Source: an uncultured Verrucomicrobiae bacterium (lineage in GTDB: Bacteria > Verrucomicrobiota > Verrucomicrobiia > Chthoniobacterales > UBA10450). From it: a DNA stretch of 64,000 bases. Under the pieces are notes generated by a model. The model did no database searches. It saw nothing but the letters and a program-made list of their open reading frames with translations, and was not told the DNA's origin. Shown here piece after piece: positions 7,746-57,383 of this stretch. The position numbers and the translations under genes were made by a program. Location of the stretch: positions 768,001 to 832,000 of the forward strand of contig CAVYXA010000001.1 of the NCBI GenBank assembly GCA_963772365.1, given 5' to 3'. Within the stretch, counting starts at the first letter, position 1; each line of letters begins with the position of its first letter.

Positions 7746-7869
7746 ACAGTCTCTTGAAGCAACTCACATGCCCTTCGATACCACGCCTTCTCGCCCGTAG
7801 TGACATCACTCGAAGACGATGTAACGATGTAACGCTTCAATCTTGCTACGCTTAGAAATCTCCAAGCTC

Positions 7870-8952
7870 ATGTTTGTCGACCGTATCAAAGTTCTTGCAC
7901 AAGCTGGTAACGGCGGGCGTGGTTGCGTCAGTTTTCGGCGGGAGAAATTTGTCCCGAAGGGCGGACCTGACGGAGGCGATGGTGGCCGCGGCGGCGATGT
8001 AATCCTGCGTGCCGATCGACACGTCGATAGTCTTTCGAATCTTTTTTACGAACCAATCATTAAGGCGAAAAATGGCGGACATGGCATGGGAAAGAAAATG
8101 CATGGACGTTCCGCGCCGGCAAAGATCGTGCAGGTGCCGGTGGGAACAATTGGTTGGGAGGCGGAATCAAAGTCGGTCATCCTGAGCGAAAGCGAAGGAT
8201 CCCGTGATGCCCCCTTAAAGCTTTCGCAACGGGATTCCTCGGCTTCGCTCGGAATGACGAGTGGGGAACCGGTGGTCGATCTTATCCAGGACGGGCAGGA
8301 GTTTGTTCTGTGCCAGGGTGGAAAGGGCGGCAAGGGAAACGTGCATTTCAAGAGCTCGCGAAACCGCGCCCCGCGCGAATACACCGAAGGCGAAGAAGGC
8401 GAGGCGGGACATTTCCTGCTTGAACTGCGCACGATCGCCGACGGGGCCCTCGTTGGTTATCCGAATGCCGGCAAGTCGACTTTGCTTCGAAAAATTTCCG
8501 CCGCGCGCCCGAAGGTCGCGTCTTACCCATTTACGACGCTCCATCCGATCATCGGAGTGGTGGAATTTCCCGGTTATCGCCGCGCGGCCATCGCCGACAT
8601 TCCCGGCCTGATCGAAGGCGCGCATCGCGGGCTTGGGCTCGGTCACGAATTTTTACGGCACATCACTCGATGTCGGATCTTTCTCTTCGTTGTCGATGCT
8701 GCCGGAAGCGAAGGTCGGAGTCCGGTGGAAGATTTACAACAACTGCGACGCGAGATCGATCTCTACGATTCACGCTTGTCAGAGCGACCGTGGTTCGTGA
8801 TCGCCAACAAAATGGATCTGGGCGACGCGAGTGAAAATTTAAAAGCCTTGCGCAAACGATTCCCAAAAATCGAGATCGTCGCGGTTTCAGCCGCGAAAGG
8901 CGAAAACATCGATACACTAAAGAACAAGCTAGCCGACTGGCTCAAGCTGTAG
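7870..8952 (+). CDS. obgE: GTPase ObgE with an in-frame repeat insertion
   Basis: MFVDRIK, SFRREKFVPKGGPDGGDGG, GYPNAGKST, DIPGLIEGA, NKMD. Confidence 0.97.
   Translation: MFVDRIKVLAQAGNGGRGCVSFRREKFVPKGGPDGGDGGRGGDVILRADRHVDSLSNLFYEPIIKAKNGGHGMGKKMHGRSAPAKIVQVPVGTIGWEAESKSVILSESEGSRDAPLKLSQRDSSASLGMTSGEPVVDLIQDGQEFVLCQGGKGGKGNVHFKSSRNRAPREYTEGEEGEAGHFLLELRTIADGALVGYPNAGKSTLLRKISAARPKVASYPFTTLHPIIGVVEFPGYRRAAIADIPGLIEGAHRGLGLGHEFLRHITRCRIFLFVVDAAGSEGRSPVEDLQQLRREIDLYDSRLSERPWFVIANKMDLGDASENLKALRKRFPKIEIVAVSAAKGENIDTLKNKLADWLKL
8176..8258. repeat. family B palindrome in frame within obgE
   Basis: GTCATCCTGAGCGAAAGCGAAGGATCCC...GGGATTCCTCGGCTTCGCTCGGAATGAC, translated as VILSESEGSRDAPLKLSQRDSSASLGMT. 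Confidence 0.9.
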
Positions 8953-9027: not shown

Positions 9028-12000
9028 TTAATATTCGTGCTCCCAGTCATGACCGTCCGTGCAACAGTTCGTCACGTGCGTTGATTCGCGCTGAAGCGAC
9101 GCGCCGATCTTCGGATCGAAGTTCATCAAGAAGAGGTCGGGACTGGAATAATCAATGGCCTTCGACACAGTGCAATACAGTCCGGACTCGCCATCGAACC
9201 GCATCCCATTGAACAAATATGGATTTCCGATGGCGCTGGCAGGCAGCGGATTGCCTGAGCCGTCGAAGAAGTGCGGATCGCCGAAATCTTCGTATTCGTA
9301 CCGTTCAGCCGCGCCCCCAGCAGGGTTGGTCAACGGCCAGATCGCAACATCGGACCCCGCTCCGACATAGGTGAAATTATTCCCTGCGCGACGCATCTCG
9401 ACTGGGGCTAGCGAATATCGAGGATCCAACAATTCAGGCCAGGGGCCGCGTCCATCGTCCATCGTGCGCAAGTTAAAAGCCCAGTCGCTCTCGCGATATT
9501 GAACACAGTAGTCGCGCTGGCAAGAGCATTGGTCATCGCACATTTCGCCACCACGTTCTGTACAGACACCAATCGGGGGGAGCGGCTGGATCGGGAGATG
9601 TGGCAAATCGACCATCGTGCACAATACCCACCAGGGTAGAGACCCGCCACCGCCGTTCCAATCTCCTCCGCGAACCGGTACCGTGCTGTAGCCTGCTGTT
9701 ACCCCGCCGCTGCCGTCGCGCTCCTCCAGAACAGTGCGTCCAGTATAAAAGAAATTCGTGGTGTTCGGTTTCCCGTCGGGATCGAGTGTCTTCGCGATGC
9801 GACGACCATGCGCGTCGTATTGATAATTGGCAATCCGCAGACCGGTATTCACGTCGGTAAAATCGACAAGACGGTTTGCGTAATCGTAGGTGTAGTTCTT
9901 GTTCGCGCCGCCGCCGTTGAGACTAGTGCGGTTGCCATTGGCGTCGTACAAATAGTTGCCGCGGGGCGTGCTGGTATACTGGCTCATCTGCGCATCCGCG
10001 GGCTCGGGCGTCGTGTTATCCAGGAAATAGGGCCCGGGATCGGGTGTTTGAAAACCATTCACGGCAAGCCGATTGCCGTTGCGGTCGTAATTGTAAATCG
10101 TGTCGCGCACAAGTGTCGGGCCGGGCGCGTTCACTTGCGTATGCACATTTCGATTTGCCGGGTCGTAATCATAATGATGCAAAAGTTGCGGCCCGCCCGA
10201 GCGGGTGTCTGCGCGCTCGCTCAGGTTTTGGTTGGCATCGTAAGTAAAAGTGCGTTGATCGAGAACGATGTTGCCGAGTTGAAGCGTAACCGTGCCGGCC
10301 ACCTGTCCCCAGCCAAGGTCGGAGCTTGGCGGCGCGTCGACAAATCCATTGTAGCTGAACAATGTCGATGTTGCATTGCGGTGCGAAACACTCTCAGTCC
10401 GGCGTCCAATGTAATTATACGTCGCCATGGTTCCCAATGTATCGCCATCGCTTGTCGCCGTTAGGCTGACGCTCGTACAAAGATTTGCCACGTCGTGCGC
10501 GTAAGTGAGTGTGCGTCCACTCGGCGATTGCAACGTCAACAAATTGCCGACCGCGTCGTGTGTGTAGCTCGTAACCAGGTTCCCTAAACTTTCGCTGGTG
10601 CGGTGCGCCAGTGAATCGAAGGTGTAGCGCACGACTGCTGCATTGTTGATCGCGCGCTCAGGCCAGCGGTATTCGCCAGGGTAATCGTAAATCTCAAACG
10701 TTGTGGCGTTGGATACTCCCGGGCCGGGAATGATCTGGCGCTGACGAAGCCGATTCAGATTGTCGTAGTTATTGATACAGACAGTTGCGTTCTCATCGTG
10801 GGATTGAACTGCGTTGCCCCAGGCATCATAGCTCCAGGTTTTCGCCGTGGTGTCGGCATTCGTCCGCTGAAGACAGCGGCCCAGCGCATCGTACTGATAC
10901 TGGGTCGAATACGAATTGGGATTGGTCGCGCCGGTCAAACGCGAATTGTCATCCCAAATCCGCCCACTAATGACGTCGATCCCGGCGTCGAATCCTGAAC
11001 CGTTTCCGTTCATGTCGCGTCCGCTTCGGAGCAATCGATTCAGACCGTCATACTCGGATTGAACGAGCTTATTTCGCGGATCGATATATCGCACTCGATT
11101 GCTGCGCGAGTTGTACAAATAGCTTTGGGCATTCCCCACGTTGTCAGTCGAGGTAATTAGCCGATCCAAACCATCATAGACATTCGTCAGAACAAATACT
11201 TGATCCGACGACGCCGAATCTGATTTATCGGTCCGCGTCCGCGTCACCAGATTTCCATTTGAATCGTAGGTGTAATCGACGGAATTGGCTTTTGGATCGG
11301 TGATGCGTGAAAGGCGATTCGCGCCGTCATACGAAAACGATGTCGCGTGTCCGTTGTCATCTGTCACGCTTGTTACATTCAGCGCCGGATCACGTCCGAT
11401 TGAGATCGTGCGCGCGCCATCGTCGATCGTGGCCGTCGTGATCGGATCAAACCAACTCTCGGTCCTCTGGGTCAGAATACCGTTGGTATCGTAAACAAAC
11501 GTCCCGCCGCGTAGTGGGCCGAAGTTTGGATTGCCCTTCGCATCGAGAAAAGTCCCCTGCATCGTGAAATTCGTGACTTGATGGTTTTCATTGTAACCGT
11601 ACTGCGTGTTGGTTCCGACCGGATCGGTTAACATTGTTAGGCGATCAAAGCCGTCATAATCGTAAAGCGTCGTGTGCTGCAGCCCGGCGGGCGCACCAGT
11701 TTCGAGCCTGGCCAGATTACCATTGAGATCGTAGGTGAATTTCGAGCCGGTGGCGATTGGACTACTGGGCGCCCTGATCGCCGTAAACGGAAGATTCCGT
11801 TCATCGAATGCGTACCGCACGCGGGCATCCGGTTGCAAGCCGCCGGCCGCCAGCGGCGAGCGCATTTCGATCAACTCGCGAATCGGATCATAAAAGTATT
11901 GCGCCGTGATCGTGTGCGCATTGTCCAAGTCGCGTGTGATCGAAGTCACATGATCGAGTGAATCAAAACTGAAGCTGGTGACGAAAAACGCCGGCGTCCC

Positions 12001-14469
12001 AATGCCGCCGAATTCGTCCTTGTTTTGCACATCGACACGCGTGATCCGGTTGTTGGCGTCGCGGTAAATATTCGTGAGAAAACGTCCCGGCGTCCCCGCA
12101 TCGCGCGAAGTAACCTGCACGACTTGATTCAATTGATTAACGAAAAATTGCGTATCGTTCCCGCGAGGATCGACAATCTGTGTGACGCATCCGACTGAAT
12201 TGTGCGTGAACGCGGTCGTCAGATTTAATCCGCCGGCATCGCGAATGAACGATTGCAGATATCCATTTTGCGCGCCGCTGGTGTAATAATGCCACTCATC
12301 GCGTTCGCGATGACCGGTATTGTTCTGCGGCCAGACGATCGCAGTGAGCTGACCGTTCGCGTTGTGTTCGATGTCGGTCGTCACTCCATCCGGCCTGGTT
12401 ACGCTCATTGCGTTTCCGTTCGCATCGCGCGCGCATGTCCAAGTGAACCCGCGCGCGTCGGTACGCGCGACGCACCAACCAACTAATGGGTCACCGGTCT
12501 CAAAGATTCCGCCACCGACTTCCCCAAGGCTGGCCAACTCAGGGATATGGTCGTAGGGAGCCTCGTCTTCCTCCATCCGGATCTTGTGGGCTGCGCCCGA
12601 GCCGTCGCCAAATCCGACATGATAATAGATCCCCGTGTAGTCTATTCCGTCGCCGTTCAAATCACCGTATATAGGTCCGGCCTTACATTTGATGCCATCA
12701 CCTAATTTTAAGTAGTCTTCGACTCTGCATTGCAGGCGGCTGGAGAAGTCGAAGTCCGATTCGCGATATTGGACGCAGTAGTGGCTTGATGAGACGTCCT
12801 CGTCGATGTAGTCCACCATGTTGCACGCGTTTACGGCCTGAATGTAAGGTCCAGGGTCGCCGTTACCGTTGAAGAACGTTTTCTCGAAGCCGAAGTTGAA
12901 CTGCGGCGCGAGCGGTGTCCTCTCGCCGGTTCCGAAGCCGGATGCGTATTCGAAGTGTTGCACAAGCGGCGCGCCGCTGACTGGTAATTGCCGATGCGTC
13001 CGTAAATTTCCGCGTTCGCGCGGATTCGTATTTGGATCGAGATCACGCTGATAAACCATTTCGACACCATTCCCGCGCGGAAATGTCACTCTACTCGGCA
13101 GCGAGTCGCGGTTCCATTCGATTGTTGTTTCGAAAAACGCCGGATCGGTCGGGCGCACGGGATTCATCGGGCGGTTTGAGCTCTCGGTCACCGGAACTCC
13201 TGGTGTCGATCTTCCGGTGAAGCGCCGCAAATCAATCAGCCGATTTTTCGAATCAAACAGTGATTCATGGACGTTGCCGATCGCATCATTCACGATCGTC
13301 TTTGTCGCCGCGTTGAACCGGCTCGTCGGACTCGTCCTGGCCAGATACGTGAAGATCTTCGTCTCGTTCGCGGTGCCGACGATTTCACTGGCCACTCGGT
13401 CGTAAAGAAAACTAGTCGCTGCCGCCGTCGTTGTATAAACGGCTTGAAACCATGGCACGTTGTTTCCGTCTTTCGCGGTCAGCAGATTGTGATCTCGCCC
13501 ACCTCCAAGTCCGGTGCTGTAGGTAAACTGCGCCGTTTTTCCCGAGGGAAAATCGTTACCGATCGGCGTGCCGGTAACCGCTTGTGACCGGACAAGAACG
13601 AGATCGCCCACGTCTCCGATGCCAGGAGTCGGGCTGGTGAGATGTTGATATTGAATCGTACGGCCCGCGAAATCCTGAACAGCCTGAATCCGATTCGCGC
13701 CATCGTAGCTGATTTGAAACGGCCGATTCAGGCTGTCGATGATCAGGAACAACCGGCCCGCGCCGTCGTATTGAAACTGAATCTGGTTGGAATTGCGATC
13801 GATGATCTTGTCGATCTTGCCCGATGTCGGCGAACCGTTGAGCGACTTGAAGATCCATCTCGTCTTATCGGCAAATTCCAACGTGAAAACCTTTTCGGAA
13901 AGCGTGCCGCGCCGGAAGAGTTCGTCGGTAGAATATGATCCGTCCGATTGAAGAAAGTAAGTATCGATCCGGTTCTGCCCGTCTTGGACAGTGACGTTCG
14001 GCCCACTCAGCGCCGCGCGAATGTTGTAGGAAAAATCCCAGTTCACGCCCATCGCCGTGTCCAATCCGATTTTCGAACGATAGGTTCGGCCCCAAACCAG
14101 ATCGAGACCGCGTCCCGAAATAACAAGATCAAGGTACTCAACGAACAATTCGCCAGTGGCTTCGTTGACTCTGGGAACGCCGAAGAGCGGCTGAAGCTTG
14201 TTTACGGCGTCGAGCATTGTGAAAAATGGTTTATCCGAGTAGCGAGGGACAATGTCGTTGAAGTCGAAATCGCCCTGCACGGGCCACTGATCCTCAAAAA
14301 GAAAGCTGCCCAGATGGACCCTTTGCGAATTCACAGCCGGCGCAGTCGGTGGAGATTCCTGATCATTGCCGCCGACCGCACTTTGAAGGAGCGCAACGAT
14401 TGCGGCGAATGTAACAATCCATCGTCGCCACGCGTTGGAGCGAGCAAATCCGCGAAGACAAGTTTTCAT
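9028..14469 (-). CDS. Rhs/YD-repeat protein (DUF6531-like N-domain) with Sec signal, motif-mosaic inserts and no C-terminal toxin
   Basis: MKTCLR..hydrophobic signal; VNEATGEL..GRGLDLVWGRTYRS..GVNW; many YD repeats; core end NPYLFNGMRFDGESGLY. Confidence 0.9.
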   Translation of the reverse strand: MKTCLRGFARSNAWRRWIVTFAAIVALLQSAVGGNDQESPPTAPAVNSQRVHLGSFLFEDQWPVQGDFDFNDIVPRYSDKPFFTMLDAVNKLQPLFGVPRVNEATGELFVEYLDLVISGRGLDLVWGRTYRSKIGLDTAMGVNWDFSYNIRAALSGPNVTVQDGQNRIDTYFLQSDGSYSTDELFRRGTLSEKVFTLEFADKTRWIFKSLNGSPTSGKIDKIIDRNSNQIQFQYDGAGRLFLIIDSLNRPFQISYDGANRIQAVQDFAGRTIQYQHLTSPTPGIGDVGDLVLVRSQAVTGTPIGNDFPSGKTAQFTYSTGLGGGRDHNLLTAKDGNNVPWFQAVYTTTAAATSFLYDRVASEIVGTANETKIFTYLARTSPTSRFNAATKTIVNDAIGNVHESLFDSKNRLIDLRRFTGRSTPGVPVTESSNRPMNPVRPTDPAFFETTIEWNRDSLPSRVTFPRGNGVEMVYQRDLDPNTNPRERGNLRTHRQLPVSGAPLVQHFEYASGFGTGERTPLAPQFNFGFEKTFFNGNGDPGPYIQAVNACNMVDYIDEDVSSSHYCVQYRESDFDFSSRLQCRVEDYLKLGDGIKCKAGPIYGDLNGDGIDYTGIYYHVGFGDGSGAAHKIRMEEDEAPYDHIPELASLGEVGGGIFETGDPLVGWCVARTDARGFTWTCARDANGNAMSVTRPDGVTTDIEHNANGQLTAIVWPQNNTGHRERDEWHYYTSGAQNGYLQSFIRDAGGLNLTTAFTHNSVGCVTQIVDPRGNDTQFFVNQLNQVVQVTSRDAGTPGRFLTNIYRDANNRITRVDVQNKDEFGGIGTPAFFVTSFSFDSLDHVTSITRDLDNAHTITAQYFYDPIRELIEMRSPLAAGGLQPDARVRYAFDERNLPFTAIRAPSSPIATGSKFTYDLNGNLARLETGAPAGLQHTTLYDYDGFDRLTMLTDPVGTNTQYGYNENHQVTNFTMQGTFLDAKGNPNFGPLRGGTFVYDTNGILTQRTESWFDPITTATIDDGARTISIGRDPALNVTSVTDDNGHATSFSYDGANRLSRITDPKANSVDYTYDSNGNLVTRTRTDKSDSASSDQVFVLTNVYDGLDRLITSTDNVGNAQSYLYNSRSNRVRYIDPRNKLVQSEYDGLNRLLRSGRDMNGNGSGFDAGIDVISGRIWDDNSRLTGATNPNSYSTQYQYDALGRCLQRTNADTTAKTWSYDAWGNAVQSHDENATVCINNYDNLNRLRQRQIIPGPGVSNATTFEIYDYPGEYRWPERAINNAAVVRYTFDSLAHRTSESLGNLVTSYTHDAVGNLLTLQSPSGRTLTYAHDVANLCTSVSLTATSDGDTLGTMATYNYIGRRTESVSHRNATSTLFSYNGFVDAPPSSDLGWGQVAGTVTLQLGNIVLDQRTFTYDANQNLSERADTRSGGPQLLHHYDYDPANRNVHTQVNAPGPTLVRDTIYNYDRNGNRLAVNGFQTPDPGPYFLDNTTPEPADAQMSQYTSTPRGNYLYDANGNRTSLNGGGANKNYTYDYANRLVDFTDVNTGLRIANYQYDAHGRRIAKTLDPDGKPNTTNFFYTGRTVLEERDGSGGVTAGYSTVPVRGGDWNGGGGSLPWWVLCTMVDLPHLPIQPLPPIGVCTERGGEMCDDQCSCQRDYCVQYRESDWAFNLRTMDDGRGPWPELLDPRYSLAPVEMRRAGNNFTYVGAGSDVAIWPLTNPAGGAAERYEYEDFGDPHFFDGSGNPLPASAIGNPYLFNGMRFDGESGLYCTVSKAIDYSSPDLFLMNFDPKIGASLQRESTHVTNCCTDGHDWEHEY

Positions 14470-14658
14470 AACGATGCCTTTCCAGTTCAGCGCCGTTACC
14501 AACCCACCGCCTCGCGGCAATCTGCGAAAGGCGGCCTGAAAACCGCCCGCAGCGTCGAACGCCCGATTTAAATCAGATGCCCGGCCTAACGGCAAGCTTA
14601 ACTTTCTATTTCAATCGCATCCTTGCGAAGGCTCTTTGGACATTGGAGTTTGTTGCGA

Positions 14659-15603
14659 ATGCCTCGCTTCCAAACGAATTCTCCTCTGACTTTCGAGCCG
14701 ATTTTCATGGAACGAATTTGGGGGGGGCGCCGGCTTGAGTCGGAATTCGGCAAGAAACTGCCGCCTGGCATGAGCATCGGTGAATCGTGGGAACTTGTCG
14801 ATCGTCCGGAAGCGCAAAGCGTCGTCCGAAATGGTGAGTTGCGCGGGAAAACGCTACACGAGCTCTGGATGCAGCATCGACAATCGATCTTCGGCAATAT
14901 CCTCGATGCTCCACGATTTCCGCTGCTCGTGAAATTGCTCGATGCGCGCGAGAAGCTGTCCCTTCAAGTTCATCCCCCGGAAAAAATCGCCGCGAAATTA
15001 GGCGGCGAGCCGAAAACCGAATTCTGGTACATCGCCGCGGCTGATCCAGGCGCCCGGCTGTTTGTCGGATTACGAGGACCGATGAGCCGCTTGCAATTTG
15101 AAGCCGCCCTCCGGTCCGGAACCGTAGAGCAACACGTTCATACCATTTCAGTGAAAGGAGGCGACGCGATGTTTCTTCCGGCAGGTCGCTTCCATGCAAT
15201 CGGCGCCGGCAATCTGTTAGTCGAGATTCAGCAGAACAGCGACACCACGTATCGGGTGTTCGACTGGAATCGAGCTGATGCCAACGGGAAGCCTCGACAG
15301 TTGCATATCGAGCAAGCACTCGAGTCCATCGACTTCGAGGATGTTCGACCAGAATTGGCTCGAGCCGAAGGCGAAACTCTGGTGCGCAATTCGCTGTTCG
15401 AAGTTGTGAAATGGAAACTCGATTCTCCCCGTGAAATCGCACCCCGCGGGAAACTTGCCATCGTTTGCAGCCTCAGCGGTAACGTTCGCTGCGGTGATGT
15501 CGATCTTGAGCCCGGAGAATTTTTTCTGGTTCCGGCGGAGTCATGCGCGCGACAAGTTGAAGCAGTTCGAGGAGAAGCGAGCTTGTTGCGGATCACAATT
15601 TAA
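14659..15603 (+). CDS. manA: type I mannose-6-phosphate isomerase
   Basis: RIWGG, IGESWE, LSLQVHP, KTEFW, EIQQNSDTTYRVFDW. Confidence 0.92.
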   Translation: MPRFQTNSPLTFEPIFMERIWGGRRLESEFGKKLPPGMSIGESWELVDRPEAQSVVRNGELRGKTLHELWMQHRQSIFGNILDAPRFPLLVKLLDAREKLSLQVHPPEKIAAKLGGEPKTEFWYIAAADPGARLFVGLRGPMSRLQFEAALRSGTVEQHVHTISVKGGDAMFLPAGRFHAIGAGNLLVEIQQNSDTTYRVFDWNRADANGKPRQLHIEQALESIDFEDVRPELARAEGETLVRNSLFEVVKWKLDSPREIAPRGKLAIVCSLSGNVRCGDVDLEPGEFFLVPAESCARQVEAVRGEASLLRITI

Positions 15604-19652: not shown

Positions 19653-20480
19653 ATGCGCCTCTTGGGTCTGCTCGTTCTTAGTTTTGTCGGGCTCGCTGCG
19701 ATCAATTTGACGGAGGCTCAGACTTCTTCCTTGCCACAAGTGCCGAAGAAAGTTGCCCCGGCAATGCCAGCTGAGACTCAAATCACGTTCAACTCAGTGC
19801 ATGTCGATGGTCCCTATATTGCCTTGACCTTCGATGATGGACCGAGCCCGAAACTCACTCCAAAGTTGCTCGATCTATTGGCCGAACATCACATCAAGGC
19901 CACCTTTTTTGTGATCGGGCAAAATGTAGTCGAGCATCCGGAGATCGTTGCCAGAGCGGTGCGAGAAGGTCATGAAATCGGCAATCACAGTTGGTCACAT
20001 CCGAACTTCGGGCACATGTCGGATGAGTCCGTGCGGCTCCAACTGAAACGGACGGATCAGGCAATCGAAAACGCAACCGGCTCGCGACCGGTATTGCTCC
20101 GGCCTCCTTACGGGTCCATTACGCCGCGGCAAAAGCGGTGGATCCACAACGAGTTCGGCTACGACATCGTCCTGTGGGACGTCGATCCTCTGGATTGGAA
20201 GCGCCCTGGTCCCACGGCTATTTTCAGTCGAATTATGAAAGCAACTCGCCCGGGGTCGATAGTGCTTTCGCACGATATCCATTTGGGAACAATCGAAGCG
20301 ATGCCGGCCATTCTCAGTCAATTGGAAGCACGCGGATTCAAATTTGTTACCGTATCCGAGTTGATTGGACTGGCCGCTGCGGCACCACCAAAGGCCTTAC
20401 CGGTATCGACCAGCGTCTCAGTCACCGCTCATTCAGTCGCGCCAGCACCGACTTCGTCCCCGCTTCATACTGGTCCGTAA
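19653..20480 (+). CDS. polysaccharide/peptidoglycan deacetylase (CE4)
   Basis: ALTFDDGP, GNHSWSH, RPPYG, LSHD. Confidence 0.92.
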   Translation: MRLLGLLVLSFVGLAAINLTEAQTSSLPQVPKKVAPAMPAETQITFNSVHVDGPYIALTFDDGPSPKLTPKLLDLLAEHHIKATFFVIGQNVVEHPEIVARAVREGHEIGNHSWSHPNFGHMSDESVRLQLKRTDQAIENATGSRPVLLRPPYGSITPRQKRWIHNEFGYDIVLWDVDPLDWKRPGPTAIFSRIMKATRPGSIVLSHDIHLGTIEAMPAILSQLEARGFKFVTVSELIGLAAAAPPKALPVSTSVSVTAHSVAPAPTSSPLHTGP

Positions 20481-20500
20481 TTGCGAGTCCGGAAGGGACC

Positions 20501-22216
20501 ATGATAGCGGATCACTACCTCCAGCTTCGGAGCGACCTTGAAACTGCATTATCGGGGGTGCTTAAGCTTGCCTCGGAGATGCGCCGCTCCAGTGCGTCGC
20601 TCGATAGCATCCAGGGATTGTTTACCGATATTCGCGAGCCACTGCTCATCGTCGCCGTGGGTGAAGTGAAATCAGGAAAATCATCGCTCTTGAATGCACT
20701 TTTCGGTGAGGAATTTGCAAAAGTTGACGTTCTTCCGGCCACCGATCGGATTTGCATATTCCGATACAGCGAGCGCGAGAAATCTGTCGATGTTTCCCCG
20801 CAATTGGTCGAGCGCTACCTGCCCGTGCCATTCCTGCGCGATTTCAATGTTGTGGATACCCCGGGCACAAACACGATGGTCGCGGAGCATCAGCTAATCA
20901 CGGAAAGTTTTATTCCGCGGGCCGATCTCGTTCTCTTTGTCTTTTCCGTTGTAAATCCCTGGACCCAGTCAGCTTGGGATCTTCTGAGCTTTGTCCAAAA
21001 GAAGTGGCTTAAGAACGTGGTTTTCGTGTTACAACAAGCTGATTTGCGCGCCCCCGCCGAAATCGATGTAATTCGCCGGCATCTGCAGGAAACAGCGCTT
21101 CAGAAACTTGGTTTTGCGCCGCCCATCTTTGCTGTTTCCGCACGAGACGCATTGGCCGCGCGCTCAAGCGGACCGCTTGGAGTCGGTCTCAGCAAAGGTA
21201 ACGAATTTCCGGAGCTGGAAGCACAGATTAATTTGATCGTTACCGGGCCCGGCGCACGTACCCTCAAGTTACGGTCGGCTGCCCAGACGGGTCAGCTCAT
21301 GGTCAAAGAAATTACCAGTGAATTAAATGCTTCACTCGATGTGATTGCTCAGGACGAGGCGCAGCTCGCACGAGCGGAAGCTTTTTTGGAAACACGGAAG
21401 GAGCAAACTCTGCGACAAGTGGCCGGACTTCTGCGCGGTGTCGAGGAAGCGTGCCGTAAAGGCGCCGCCGAGGGACTGAAATTGCTCGAGACCAAGCTCT
21501 CCTTTTGGCGGACATGGAAAATGATCTGGTCGCGCGATGAATGGCAACACGAATTTCAATCGCAAATCGAAGCGAAACTTCGACAAGCCGTGGAGTATCA
21601 GGCGGAAAATGCAGTTCACCTGTTGGAGACTGACCTGCGCGCACTCTGGCCGCAGGTTCACGATCTTATCGACCAGCAACTGCACAGCGATTTACAGGAT
21701 AAGATTCCAAAAGCCGTTCCCGATTTCGTCCGGCAGCGACGAGAGCTGCTTCAATCCATCCAACTTGCATTAGGCGAGCGGATATCGGGCACGAACGTAA
21801 ACGAAACGCTGACGCAACTTTTTCGCGAAACGTCGACGATTTTACGAGTGCCTGCCGGGCTCGCGGCGGCAGGGGGAATTGCGACGTTAATCGCCGCCAT
21901 GACCAGCGCAGCTGTCGCCGATGTGACCGGCGTCCTGGCAGCGTCTGCGGCAGTAATCGGCACCATTCTCGCCGTAACTCAACGTCGAAAAATTTTAACC
22001 GCCTATCATCAGCAAATGGAAGCCAGACGCGTTGAATTAGTGCAGACAATCGAGCGGCAGCTCAATCACGCGATCAATCTGTTTTACACTGAAGTTTCAA
22101 CGGCTTTTCAGCCTCTGGCTGCTTTTTGCACAACTCAACGCCGAGTTCACGAGCCGCTGCTGAATCGCGCGCAGGAACTCGAGCGCAGTTTCGCCGGAGC
22201 GTTGTCTCGGCTGTAG
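20501..22216 (+). CDS. bacterial dynamin-like GTPase
   Basis: GEVKSGKSS, PAT, DTPG; helical stalk with a hydrophobic paddle. Confidence 0.85.
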   Translation: MIADHYLQLRSDLETALSGVLKLASEMRRSSASLDSIQGLFTDIREPLLIVAVGEVKSGKSSLLNALFGEEFAKVDVLPATDRICIFRYSEREKSVDVSPQLVERYLPVPFLRDFNVVDTPGTNTMVAEHQLITESFIPRADLVLFVFSVVNPWTQSAWDLLSFVQKKWLKNVVFVLQQADLRAPAEIDVIRRHLQETALQKLGFAPPIFAVSARDALAARSSGPLGVGLSKGNEFPELEAQINLIVTGPGARTLKLRSAAQTGQLMVKEITSELNASLDVIAQDEAQLARAEAFLETRKEQTLRQVAGLLRGVEEACRKGAAEGLKLLETKLSFWRTWKMIWSRDEWQHEFQSQIEAKLRQAVEYQAENAVHLLETDLRALWPQVHDLIDQQLHSDLQDKIPKAVPDFVRQRRELLQSIQLALGERISGTNVNETLTQLFRETSTILRVPAGLAAAGGIATLIAAMTSAAVADVTGVLAASAAVIGTILAVTQRRKILTAYHQQMEARRVELVQTIERQLNHAINLFYTEVSTAFQPLAAFCTTQRRVHEPLLNRAQELERSFAGALSRL

Positions 22217-55974: not shown

Positions 55975-57078
55975 TTAATTAATTAGGCCGAGCCGGGCTG
56001 CGCTACAGCGTCCGGTGTGCACGCGCCACAGATCGACGGCCAAATGCCGGGCCACAGCGACGATGGCTTTTTTGCGTTGTGCGCCGGTGGCGGGCGCGTC
56101 CTTTGCCAGGATAGCGAGCCGTTTTTTAACTGGTGGATATTGCGGCTGGAAACGCACCATGCGCCAGGCGCACTCGACCAGCGCGGCTCTTAGCCGCGGG
56201 TTGCCTCGTTTGGTCACACTGCCCGCAACTCGTTTACTCCCGCTGCTGCGCTCGCCGGGACACAGTCCGGTGTAAGAACTGATCGCGCGCCGATTGTTAA
56301 ACCGGTGCCAATTACAGATCTCGCGAGTGAGCACCACGCTGGTGAGTTTGCCGATCCCGGCCGGTATGCAAGCCTCCGCCGCCGCTTCCAATTCACTGGT
56401 TAGGGCGTTAATTTGCTCCTCTAAACTCAAAAGAGCGGGTCGTGCCACATCCAGCCGTAGCCTGATCCAGACCGGCAGATGTTTGCCCAATCGGCTCCAG
56501 GTCTGTTGTTTCCACCAATGAGCCGGCGCTGCCAGCGCGTGATTGATTAGCAGCGAGCGCCCTTGGGCTTCGAGCTTCTGCCGATGATGCACCAGTTGTC
56601 CACGCTGACGCGAAACATGCCGGGCCTGTTCTTCTTCTTCGCTCGGCACCCGAATCACGGCCAGTTCCCAGGTGTTGCCTTCCACATAACGCGAGAGCCG
56701 CTGACACAACGTCAGAGCATCGCGCGGATCGGTTTTTATTCCCGTGCCCTGTTCGTCGAGTTTGCGCGGCGCAATCACGCAGCAATGTGCTCCAGCGGCA
56801 CACAACTGCCGATACAGTCCGAAGCCAAACCCGCACGCCTCATAAACCACATGAACCGTGTGACCCCTTCGCAACACTGCTTCCACCCAGGGAACAAACT
56901 CGGGAGGGGCAAAGCGTCGAGGCGCCTTGGGCAAGAGCTGATCGTATTGGGCCACTACCACATAGACCCGGGCGTGCATGTCCAGTCCAAGCTTGATCAC
57001 CGAGTACGGGAGCTTTACTTTACCAACGGCGCCCTCGGGTGAGGTCGCCCCTTCGTTATGAACGATTGTATTTTGCAT
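55975..57078 (-). CDS. IS110 DEDD recombinase/transposase
   Basis: GLDMH, YEACG, KTDPRDA (D-E-D-D); GLCPGERSSG with catalytic Ser; GNPRLR; AVAR. Confidence 0.95.
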   Translation of the reverse strand: MQNTIVHNEGATSPEGAVGKVKLPYSVIKLGLDMHARVYVVVAQYDQLLPKAPRRFAPPEFVPWVEAVLRRGHTVHVVYEACGFGFGLYRQLCAAGAHCCVIAPRKLDEQGTGIKTDPRDALTLCQRLSRYVEGNTWELAVIRVPSEEEEQARHVSRQRGQLVHHRQKLEAQGRSLLINHALAAPAHWWKQQTWSRLGKHLPVWIRLRLDVARPALLSLEEQINALTSELEAAAEACIPAGIGKLTSVVLTREICNWHRFNNRRAISSYTGLCPGERSSGSKRVAGSVTKRGNPRLRAALVECAWRMVRFQPQYPPVKKRLAILAKDAPATGAQRKKAIVAVARHLAVDLWRVHTGRCSAARLGLIN

Positions 57079-57383
57079 AGTGCGGGTGAGCTTAACCACT
57101 CGCCCGCACCCTTACATGCCATCTAGCCGGTCCAGCCGATCGCGAGCCGTTCCGATTTCTAGCTTTGCGTCAATCCTCCACACTTTCTTTGGTGTCACGC
57201 GCGGTTCCGCTCGCCGTCGCTCAGCTCCGTCTCGTTAGATGTTCTGACTACAACAAGATGGCGGGTCGAGCCGAACTGGCCTAGCGACCTGCTCCATCAT
57301 GCCGGAGTTTTGTGAATAACTCGCGAAATTGCAAAACTTGGTGATTGACTTGCCGGGCGTTTCCGTCCGAAATCGCTCGCATT

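Follow-up and report, generated by a model that had tools for sequence, protein, structure and literature searches.

How a single bacterial gene can come to hold, in one reading frame, a string of short peptides resembling parts of unrelated protein families is the question raised by a locus of an uncultured Verrucomicrobiae bacterium. The window analysed here (the whole stretch of 64,000 nucleotides, positions 768,001 to 832,000 of contig CAVYXA010000001.1, assembly GCA_963772365.1) carries a gene for an Rhs/YD-repeat protein, hereafter P0002. An initial annotation, made from the letters alone, listed within this gene nine strings that it likened to parts of a type VI secretion system (T6SS), to phage tails and to Ca-binding motifs; all nine are present in the order given there, within one open frame of the minus-strand open reading frame (ORF) 9028-14595. 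The strings form an in-frame insert of 154 residues, referred to as the patch or slot B. The corresponding slot of orthologues is filled with other pieces, whole genes for some donor families (VgrG, LruC-type) are not found in the genome, and one borrowed piece in the orthologues is held by purifying selection on the protein. The letters G, L and P designate genomes, loci and proteins, G000 being the genome of the window (3.35 Mb, 6 contigs, 90% complete). Units 1 to 9 are numbered in the order of the initial list, and their coordinates were computed from residue numbers.

The predicted carrier protein belongs to the Rhs/YD-repeat family by its repeats and its fold. Pfam detected the RHS repeats (PF05593, RHS_repeat, E 2.7e-46), a DUF6531 domain and two short Phage_GPD stretches. 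In the structure model of residues 90-1100 the scaffold forms a beta-hairpin cage with a predicted local distance difference test score (pLDDT) of about 90, and the top Foldseek match of the model is RhsA (7q97, E 4.7e-37). Slot B lies between two strands of this cage with a pLDDT below 50. Modelled alone it reached 31.8, weak evidence against a confident fold as it was obtained without alignment depth; folding as one conserved domain, which the initial annotation held to be incompatible with a string of units, was not seen. P0002 is not a canonical Rhs toxin. No C-terminal toxin domain follows the core, the tail of fewer than 50 residues being without family match, and no aspartyl autocleavage motif (Asp-Pro-x-Gly, as given in PMC8636562) was found by inspection of the last 95 residues. 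No immunity gene lies downstream, where there is no room for one because obgE converges at a distance of only 75 nt. A candidate signal peptide, recognized by eye and also in P0003, suggests that the cage is probably exported.

The origin of the units was examined with sliding windows of 20-25 residues, profile searches, scaffold control windows and shuffled sequences. VgrG was the only clear family obtained from sliding windows of the patch. Unit 3 (12733-12783), with VgrG piece 1, matched TIGR03361 (E 4.9e-6) and PF05954 (E 8.7e-6), and 15 of the 16 residues of the piece are identical to VgrG P0126; no scaffold control window matched any VgrG model (0/12 in the PF05954 scan and 0/6 in the TIGR03361 scan). 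When 659 longer candidate proteins were compared, all 12 non-self matches of the patch were VgrG. These sequence matches establish a VgrG origin for at least unit 3. A second VgrG piece, merging unit 7 with the start of unit 8, is probable, its family-wise p being 0.003 with 18 VgrGs, 12 of them picked by the patch itself, and 0.20-0.27 with 24 independently chosen VgrGs. The two pieces follow each other as they do in VgrG itself (156-171 and about 287-300 of the consensus) and not, as had been proposed, in scrambled order. The predicted Ca-binding-like motif corresponds to an FG-GAP-like repeat (unit 5 with flanks), which is 54-58% identical to repeats found in P0138 and P0141, both FG-GAP_3-like, and has a shuffle p of 0.006 or lower against homologue strings; its isolated 26-mer gave no Pfam match. 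One further unit, absent from the initial list, weakly resembles a motif of a secreted family with five paralogues in G000 (11/14 identities and a gap of 2 residues, with E 0.079 and 31.2 bits; in 100 shuffles the 95th percentile was 29.9 and the maximum 31.6).

Profile and shuffle tests, suggested in the initial annotation as a check, supported unit 3 and the FG-GAP-like unit and not the Hcp-like and baseplate-like units. For the supposed Hcp N-terminal-like unit 4, comparison with 24 Hcp sequences gave a best family-wise p of 0.73, and that from another window; for the supposed baseplate-like unit 6, comparison with 20 baseplate proteins gave a best per-window p of 0.005 and a family-wise value of 0.33. 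Unit 6 was also rejected as a VgrG segment (family-wise p 0.19, 24 independent VgrGs), and units 1, 2 and 9 showed no family match in the profile and shuffle scans. That 5 of the 9 named units are unassigned or fail the nulls, and that the first 60 kb of the contig are of foreign GC (G000:C1:1-60000, 0.70-0.72, the remainder having 0.55; a chimeric join or a foreign segment is the probable cause), could be taken as signs of chance resemblance or an assembly artefact. For unit 3 and for the family pattern, however, this explanation is refuted by the hidden Markov model matches and shuffles; identical mosaics occur in independent collections, syntenic orthologues exist, and the interior of the patch is also represented, at about 95% identity, in a separate sequencing run. 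We regard it as very improbable.

Table 1. Positions in the window of the Rhs gene, its slots and borrowed pieces, and the neighbouring genes.
Feature	Position	Strand	Remarks
Slot B (patch)	12469..12930	-	154-residue in-frame insert, residues 556-709, at a beta-turn of the YD shell
VgrG piece 1 (unit 3; gp27-like hub motif), 16 residues	12733..12780	-	TIGR03361, PF05954
Probable VgrG piece 2 (unit 7 + start of unit 8), 14 residues	12544..12585	-	Shuffle tests
FG-GAP-like repeat unit, Ca-binding type (unit 5 + flanks)	12622..12684	-	Homologous repeats
Unit like a motif from secreted proteins (5 paralogues in G000)	12829..12864	-	Weak
Atypical (AT-ending) codon block, about 30 codons	12637..12729	-	Residues 623-653; holds Hcp-like unit and FG-GAP-like core
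Slot A, variable N-terminal linker	14200..14328	-	LruC-domain N-terminal motif at 14239-14307
Slot C, variable	9409..9684	-	Second VgrG hub-motif copy at 9457-9525
VgrG-like 10-mer in register for a YD-repeat turn	10669..10698	-	Common to 8 clade members; family consensus is a plain YD turn
Rhs/YD-repeat gene (P0002)	9028..14469	-	1813 residues from ATG at 14469; open frame up to 14595
DUF6531 domain	13957..14169	-	PF20148, E 4.1e-11
Candidate Sec signal peptide	14371..14469	-	By eye: basic start, hydrophobic stretch
Short variable tail	9028..9171	-	No family match, no toxin domain
manA (phosphomannose isomerase)	14623..15603	+	Upstream neighbour, syntenic in orthologues
obgE	7843..8952	+	Convergent downstream neighbour

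No homologue of the whole patch was found in 300 genomes of the phylum (9 weak matches, E 0.01-0.05) or among 1.84 billion representatives, where all 4 matches were driven by repeats; P0139 and P0140 were rejected as noise. The atlas search gave a best score of 0.88, which is a lead only, PHROGs gave E values of 0.05-0.5 only, and PDB sequences gave VgrG only (E 0.17-0.19). The enrichment in AT-ending codons noted initially does not hold patch-wide (GC at third codon positions, 101/151 in the patch and 824/1327 in the scaffold, p 0.29) but does hold in residues 623-653, with a scan-corrected p of 0.002 or lower relative to the codon usage of 16 window genes and a value below that of every 23-codon scaffold window. 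The start of this block coincides with the end of VgrG piece 1, hinting at a different donor. It also sits between the two VgrG pieces, and its position, together with their colinearity and the exclusive matching of VgrG among longer proteins (12/12), would fit a patch descended from a single larger VgrG fragment that was fused into the loop, has eroded to a remnant and was later broken up by one or two insertions. About 115 VgrG residues are missing between the pieces, however, the VgrG pieces of P0009 are out of order, non-VgrG words directly abut VgrG words, and the hub motif occurs in two slots with different codons. Such a remnant, already a weak account of the family as a whole, is an improbable source of the patch.

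The same kind of filling is found at other positions of the protein. Slot A contains an LruC motif (TIGR04456, E 3.6e-9), the sole LruC match in G000, and in three orthologues the slot contains a VgrG piece instead. Slot C contains a second copy of the hub motif (TIGR03361, E 2.3e-4). The two copies within P0002 share 9 identical residues but differ at 6 silent bases, so that the one was not recently copied from the other. At two places where the Rhs consensus already resembles VgrG, a VgrG-like piece stands in register for a scaffold turn. One composite string of VgrG plus its neighbour occurs in slot B of P0009 and in slot C of P0104, both orthologues. Each VgrG piece matches only 19-26 of the 513 TIGR03361 profile positions, and the full gp27-like hub, gp5 oligonucleotide/oligosaccharide-binding fold and needle by which a VgrG is recognized are not found in P0002.

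Across the family, six VgrG and four Hcp queries gave 77 short matches in 30 of 171 Rhs sequences, a set that includes duplicates, compared with 0-1 matches in each of 5 local shuffles. With a profile of 24 VgrGs, 48 pieces, a few of them probably noise, scored higher than the best of 40 shuffled proteins; they lie in 26 of 134 sequences. The ends of these pieces vary among sequences, and the VgrG columns covered by them are more conserved than those left uncovered (0.67 vs 0.42). Pfam applied to 24 of 27 chosen homologues showed Gp5 repeats in slot B, and pieces of Hcp, cold-shock protein, EF-Tu and FG-GAP. Forty seven-mers, partly reflecting kinship, recur in at least 3 of 51 slot strings, and none in 5 shuffles. 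The initial description, in which short acquired units are strung together in frame with no repeat spacers, is supported; some units come from families (VgrG, LruC-type) absent as whole genes, and the strings of orthologues differ.

Comparison of homologues indicated how the slot changes. Slot B is a short loop in 65 and a long string in 48 of 113 distinct scaffolds; among 143 delimited sequences, a redundant set with a few poorly anchored distant rows, 70 have at most 15 residues (the short loops being of 3-13 residues) and 70 have at least 25. All 8 closest homologues, with flanks 61-90% identical, carry slot B content other than that of the patch. In the orthologues of L011, L012 and L013, where manA (61-62% identical), a small ORF and yggS precede the Rhs gene as in the window, slot B is filled with other VgrG, Hcp or tail-tube pieces. 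In G001, a congener, manA adjoins obgE directly, and no match to Rhs was found. From this synteny and adjacency, the Rhs gene is taken to be an old resident that has often been lost and whose slot has been rewritten in place. In pairs of at least 97% identity no low-identity slot window was found (12/12, one pair having a C-terminal frameshift); at 84-91% the slots have changed little, and at 75% slot B is wholly different. By these sequence comparisons, slot turnover is slow.

Some homologues differ in other respects. In the close homologues P0008, P0009 and P0010 the N-terminal part is longer and includes an Hcp-like start and a TIG domain, both missing from P0002 and P0003. The G042 orthologue is frameshifted near its C-terminus (L012, around 14000-15400) while the cluster member P0104 is continuous, and the frameshift may be a sequencing error. 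Some short-loop Rhs homologues (P0035, P0038, P0047, P0061, L051 and L058) carry, in place of motif strings, a whole domain of ~150-200 residues inserted near the core end. Elsewhere in the window are an IS110 family transposase (55975-57099) and a dynamin-like GTPase gene adjoining a PAS histidine kinase (20138-22216).

Selection could be measured on the slot-A VgrG piece (34 codons) of three orthologues. The proportion of synonymous differences (pS) is 0.56-0.79 and that of nonsynonymous differences (pN) 0.15-0.21, against 0.60-0.68 and 0.10-0.14, respectively, for the scaffold of the same three proteins. Relative to intact VgrGs the pS of the piece is 0.86-1.10 (the counting method permits values above 1). 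Since pS among orthologues is below pS to intact VgrGs and pN is far below pS, this piece has been inherited and is under purifying selection on the protein. The same data bear on a neutral explanation, in which conserved motifs persist as the best recombination anchors and the cage merely tolerates them. It accounts for the bias to conserved motifs and the tandem word repeats in some slots, and for composite strings moving between slots; repeated refreshing is nevertheless not what the slot-A piece records, as it keeps ancestral codons, and slot B of P0059 and P0060 (84% identical overall) is near-unchanged except for repeat number. We consider neutral persistence quite unlikely.

The donors were then looked for. 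In G000 VgrG matches lie only inside Rhs, and no match to TssC, Hcp, TssE or TagJ was found in this 90% complete genome, so that it does not seem to encode a T6SS. Eight of 9 long-slot genomes, all but G044, are likewise without a full-length VgrG match, completeness being known for G000 only. No DNA donor for the patch was found within the genome of the window (best match 17 nt, within the shuffled range), no silent donor cassettes and no second collage gene were found there, the 50 slot strings matching ordinary genes only, and the orphan tail-tube and Hcp genes of these genomes gave no match to the slot strings. G000 (C3:126417-126938, L170) and G042 (L171) have tail-tube genes of the T4 gp19-like type that stand alone, sheath and baseplate genes not being seen around them, and G041 and G042 have solitary or signal-peptide-bearing Hcp-like genes. 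A metagenome scan gave 3 distant loci, which were not used.

The initial annotation had gone further and read the string as a record of encountered machines. Slot B is not a CRISPR-like (clustered regularly interspaced short palindromic repeats) acquisition array: it has no repeats at unit edges, and no Cas1 is shared among the five genomes searched. Several of the named units fail the nulls, the vocabulary includes cold-shock, EF-Tu, FG-GAP and LruC pieces, the slots are unchanged in 12/12 pairs of at least 97% identity, and units are replaced within the string instead of being added at one end. A search for a shared acquisition enzyme (RVT_1, Cas1, neighbour genes) found none. The initial observation is therefore partly confirmed and its interpretation partly supported.

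A different active process would be a dedicated capture system, unlinked and of a family not yet known, that writes short conserved coding fragments in frame from DNA or RNA as an adaptive peptide library or memory. In its favour, long slots go with clades, no gene of G000 other than the Rhs gene holds the strings, the VgrG bits of G041-G043 lie only in the Rhs locus, the same words recur across hosts (the 40 seven-mers, partly kin), and several donors are typically highly expressed genes. Against it, reverse transcriptase RVT_1 was found in 1/5 genomes, not G000, and Cas1 in 1/5, in an ordinary cas locus 680 kb away. None of the 5 CRISPR spacers matches the Rhs gene, and against the gene plus 222 loci only chance matches of 14-17 nt were obtained. 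Beyond three syntenic genes no neighbour is common to 22 long-slot loci, no repeat family occurs at unit edges, slots are stable in close pairs, and piece ends vary. We consider dedicated capture unlikely, though less so than the other rivals. Somewhat less likely is an adaptive peptide display by a lineage of exported Rhs cages, in which some heritable process would write the most conserved motifs of injection machines, phage tails and other abundant microbial proteins in frame into the fixed slots, and selection would keep those acting as baits or jammers of attackers; if true, this would be an immune library at the protein level, lacking repeats, guide RNA and a linked integrase. The CRISPR locus of G000 itself (C1:93075-101971) has 6 repeats of 35 nt and a 605-residue frame containing Cas1, likely a Cas4-Cas1 fusion. 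A further frame there is Cas2-like, and two long frames that overlap could represent a split class 2 effector.

Reads of one DNA run (soil run X1, a small share) were compared with the gene, mapping of reads having been suggested in the initial annotation; no RNA run was listed as containing it. A 151-nt unitig corresponding to 12647-12768 has 6 differences and, at 12733 where VgrG piece 1 ends, an in-frame insertion of 9 nt; thereafter it is unlike the patch. A second 151-nt unitig agrees with 12364-12473 except at 3 positions and ceases to resemble the window past the edge of the slot. The two suggest breaks at inferred unit edges (12733, about 12647 and 12473), but are hints only because their depth is 2.

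Our tentative preference is for slow, microhomology-guided capture of short foreign DNA followed by selection on the displayed peptides. An exported Rhs cage without toxin tip would have its tolerant turns and linkers (slots A, B and C and the tail) rewritten piecewise over evolutionary time. Short foreign DNA of about 30-130 nt, presumably taken up from the community, would replace or extend a slot at microhomologies, in a manner like double illegitimate recombination of the short-patch type (SPDIR), and mosaic copies would serve as donors for one another. Selection at the peptide level would keep pieces covering the most conserved motifs of the donors, chiefly VgrG, Hcp and tail tube. The cage would then serve to display borrowed peptides that bind, the most plausible role of these being as baits or decoys for parts of injection machines or phage tails. 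The DNA uptake protein ComEC is present in 5/5 genomes but, being also present in 10/14 controls, does not discriminate.

Several observations weigh against this slow-capture model. Only about 63 of the 154 patch residues are assignable, 37 of them firmly; the bias to conserved VgrG motifs is partly ascertainment; and selection was measured on one slot-A piece of orthologues, other than the patch. An anti-injection role does not account for the cold-shock, EF-Tu and LruC pieces, and in G044 a T6SS and a long-slot Rhs occur together. Because no donor DNA was found, end microhomology of the SPDIR type is seen only as residue-level overlaps; the X1 unitigs, at depth 2, may be errors. Long slots cluster in clades, with 3 changes on a 113-leaf tree (midpoint-rooted, the rooting not fixing the ancestral slot state), so a general mutational route does not explain their pattern. 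SPDIR is very rare in the wild type, about 1e-12 or less (10.1101/2023.11.22.568220), and recJ is intact in 5/5 genomes.

The usual view of protein evolution is one of whole domains or point change, whereas here conserved motifs of 10-40 residues from unrelated families have been repeatedly captured into fixed slots, in the one measured case with selection maintaining the captured piece as its silent sites approach saturation. A single locus whose four orthologues differ in slot filling offers a clean system for studying the movement of sub-domain pieces between genes, and for asking whether cells use T6SS or phage-tail fragments as decoys. For genome annotation, short VgrG or Hcp profile matches in such genomes do not imply a secretion system.

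While the carrier family is known, we could not place the slot-filling in any known kind, and the literature searched, to which subscription papers and supplements did not belong, describes no such motif-filled slots. Evolved VgrG and Hcp proteins and VgrG-Rhs fusions join VgrG and Rhs in one chain as P0002 does, but P0002 has motifs of 14-34 residues inside Rhs, scoring 25 of 186 bits and far below family cut-offs, from which no spike is possible. Gene conversion from cassettes (pilE/pilS, vlsE) and diversity-generating retroelements also rewrite loops of surface proteins piecewise, but G000 is without cassette, template repeat or reverse transcriptase, the donor families are unrelated, and turnover is slow. 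SPDIR inserts heterologous patches of 3 to about 100 bp at microhomologies, possibly from foreign template, and so resembles the slots; it is a rare random mutation process (10.1101/2023.11.22.568220), and we saw no account of it filling fixed slots repeatedly and with a bias to motifs. Bridging themes, segments of 20-80 residues common to unrelated architectures, are like the slot pieces in kind, but they are ancient and folded into domains (PMC8136508), whereas slot pieces are near-consensus, recent, strung together and variable between lineages. The closest relatives are the Rhs/YD polymorphic toxins such as RhsA (7q97) and Photorhabdus Rhs1 (7pq5), which share DUF6531 and the YD-repeat cage with P0002. 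Their variable parts, like those of P0002, are swapped by recombination and have foreign codon bias (PMC8636562). In P0002, which is probably exported by Sec and is without toxin tip, immunity gene or T6SS, the variation is internal and made of pieces of 10-40 residues, instead of a whole C-terminal toxin.

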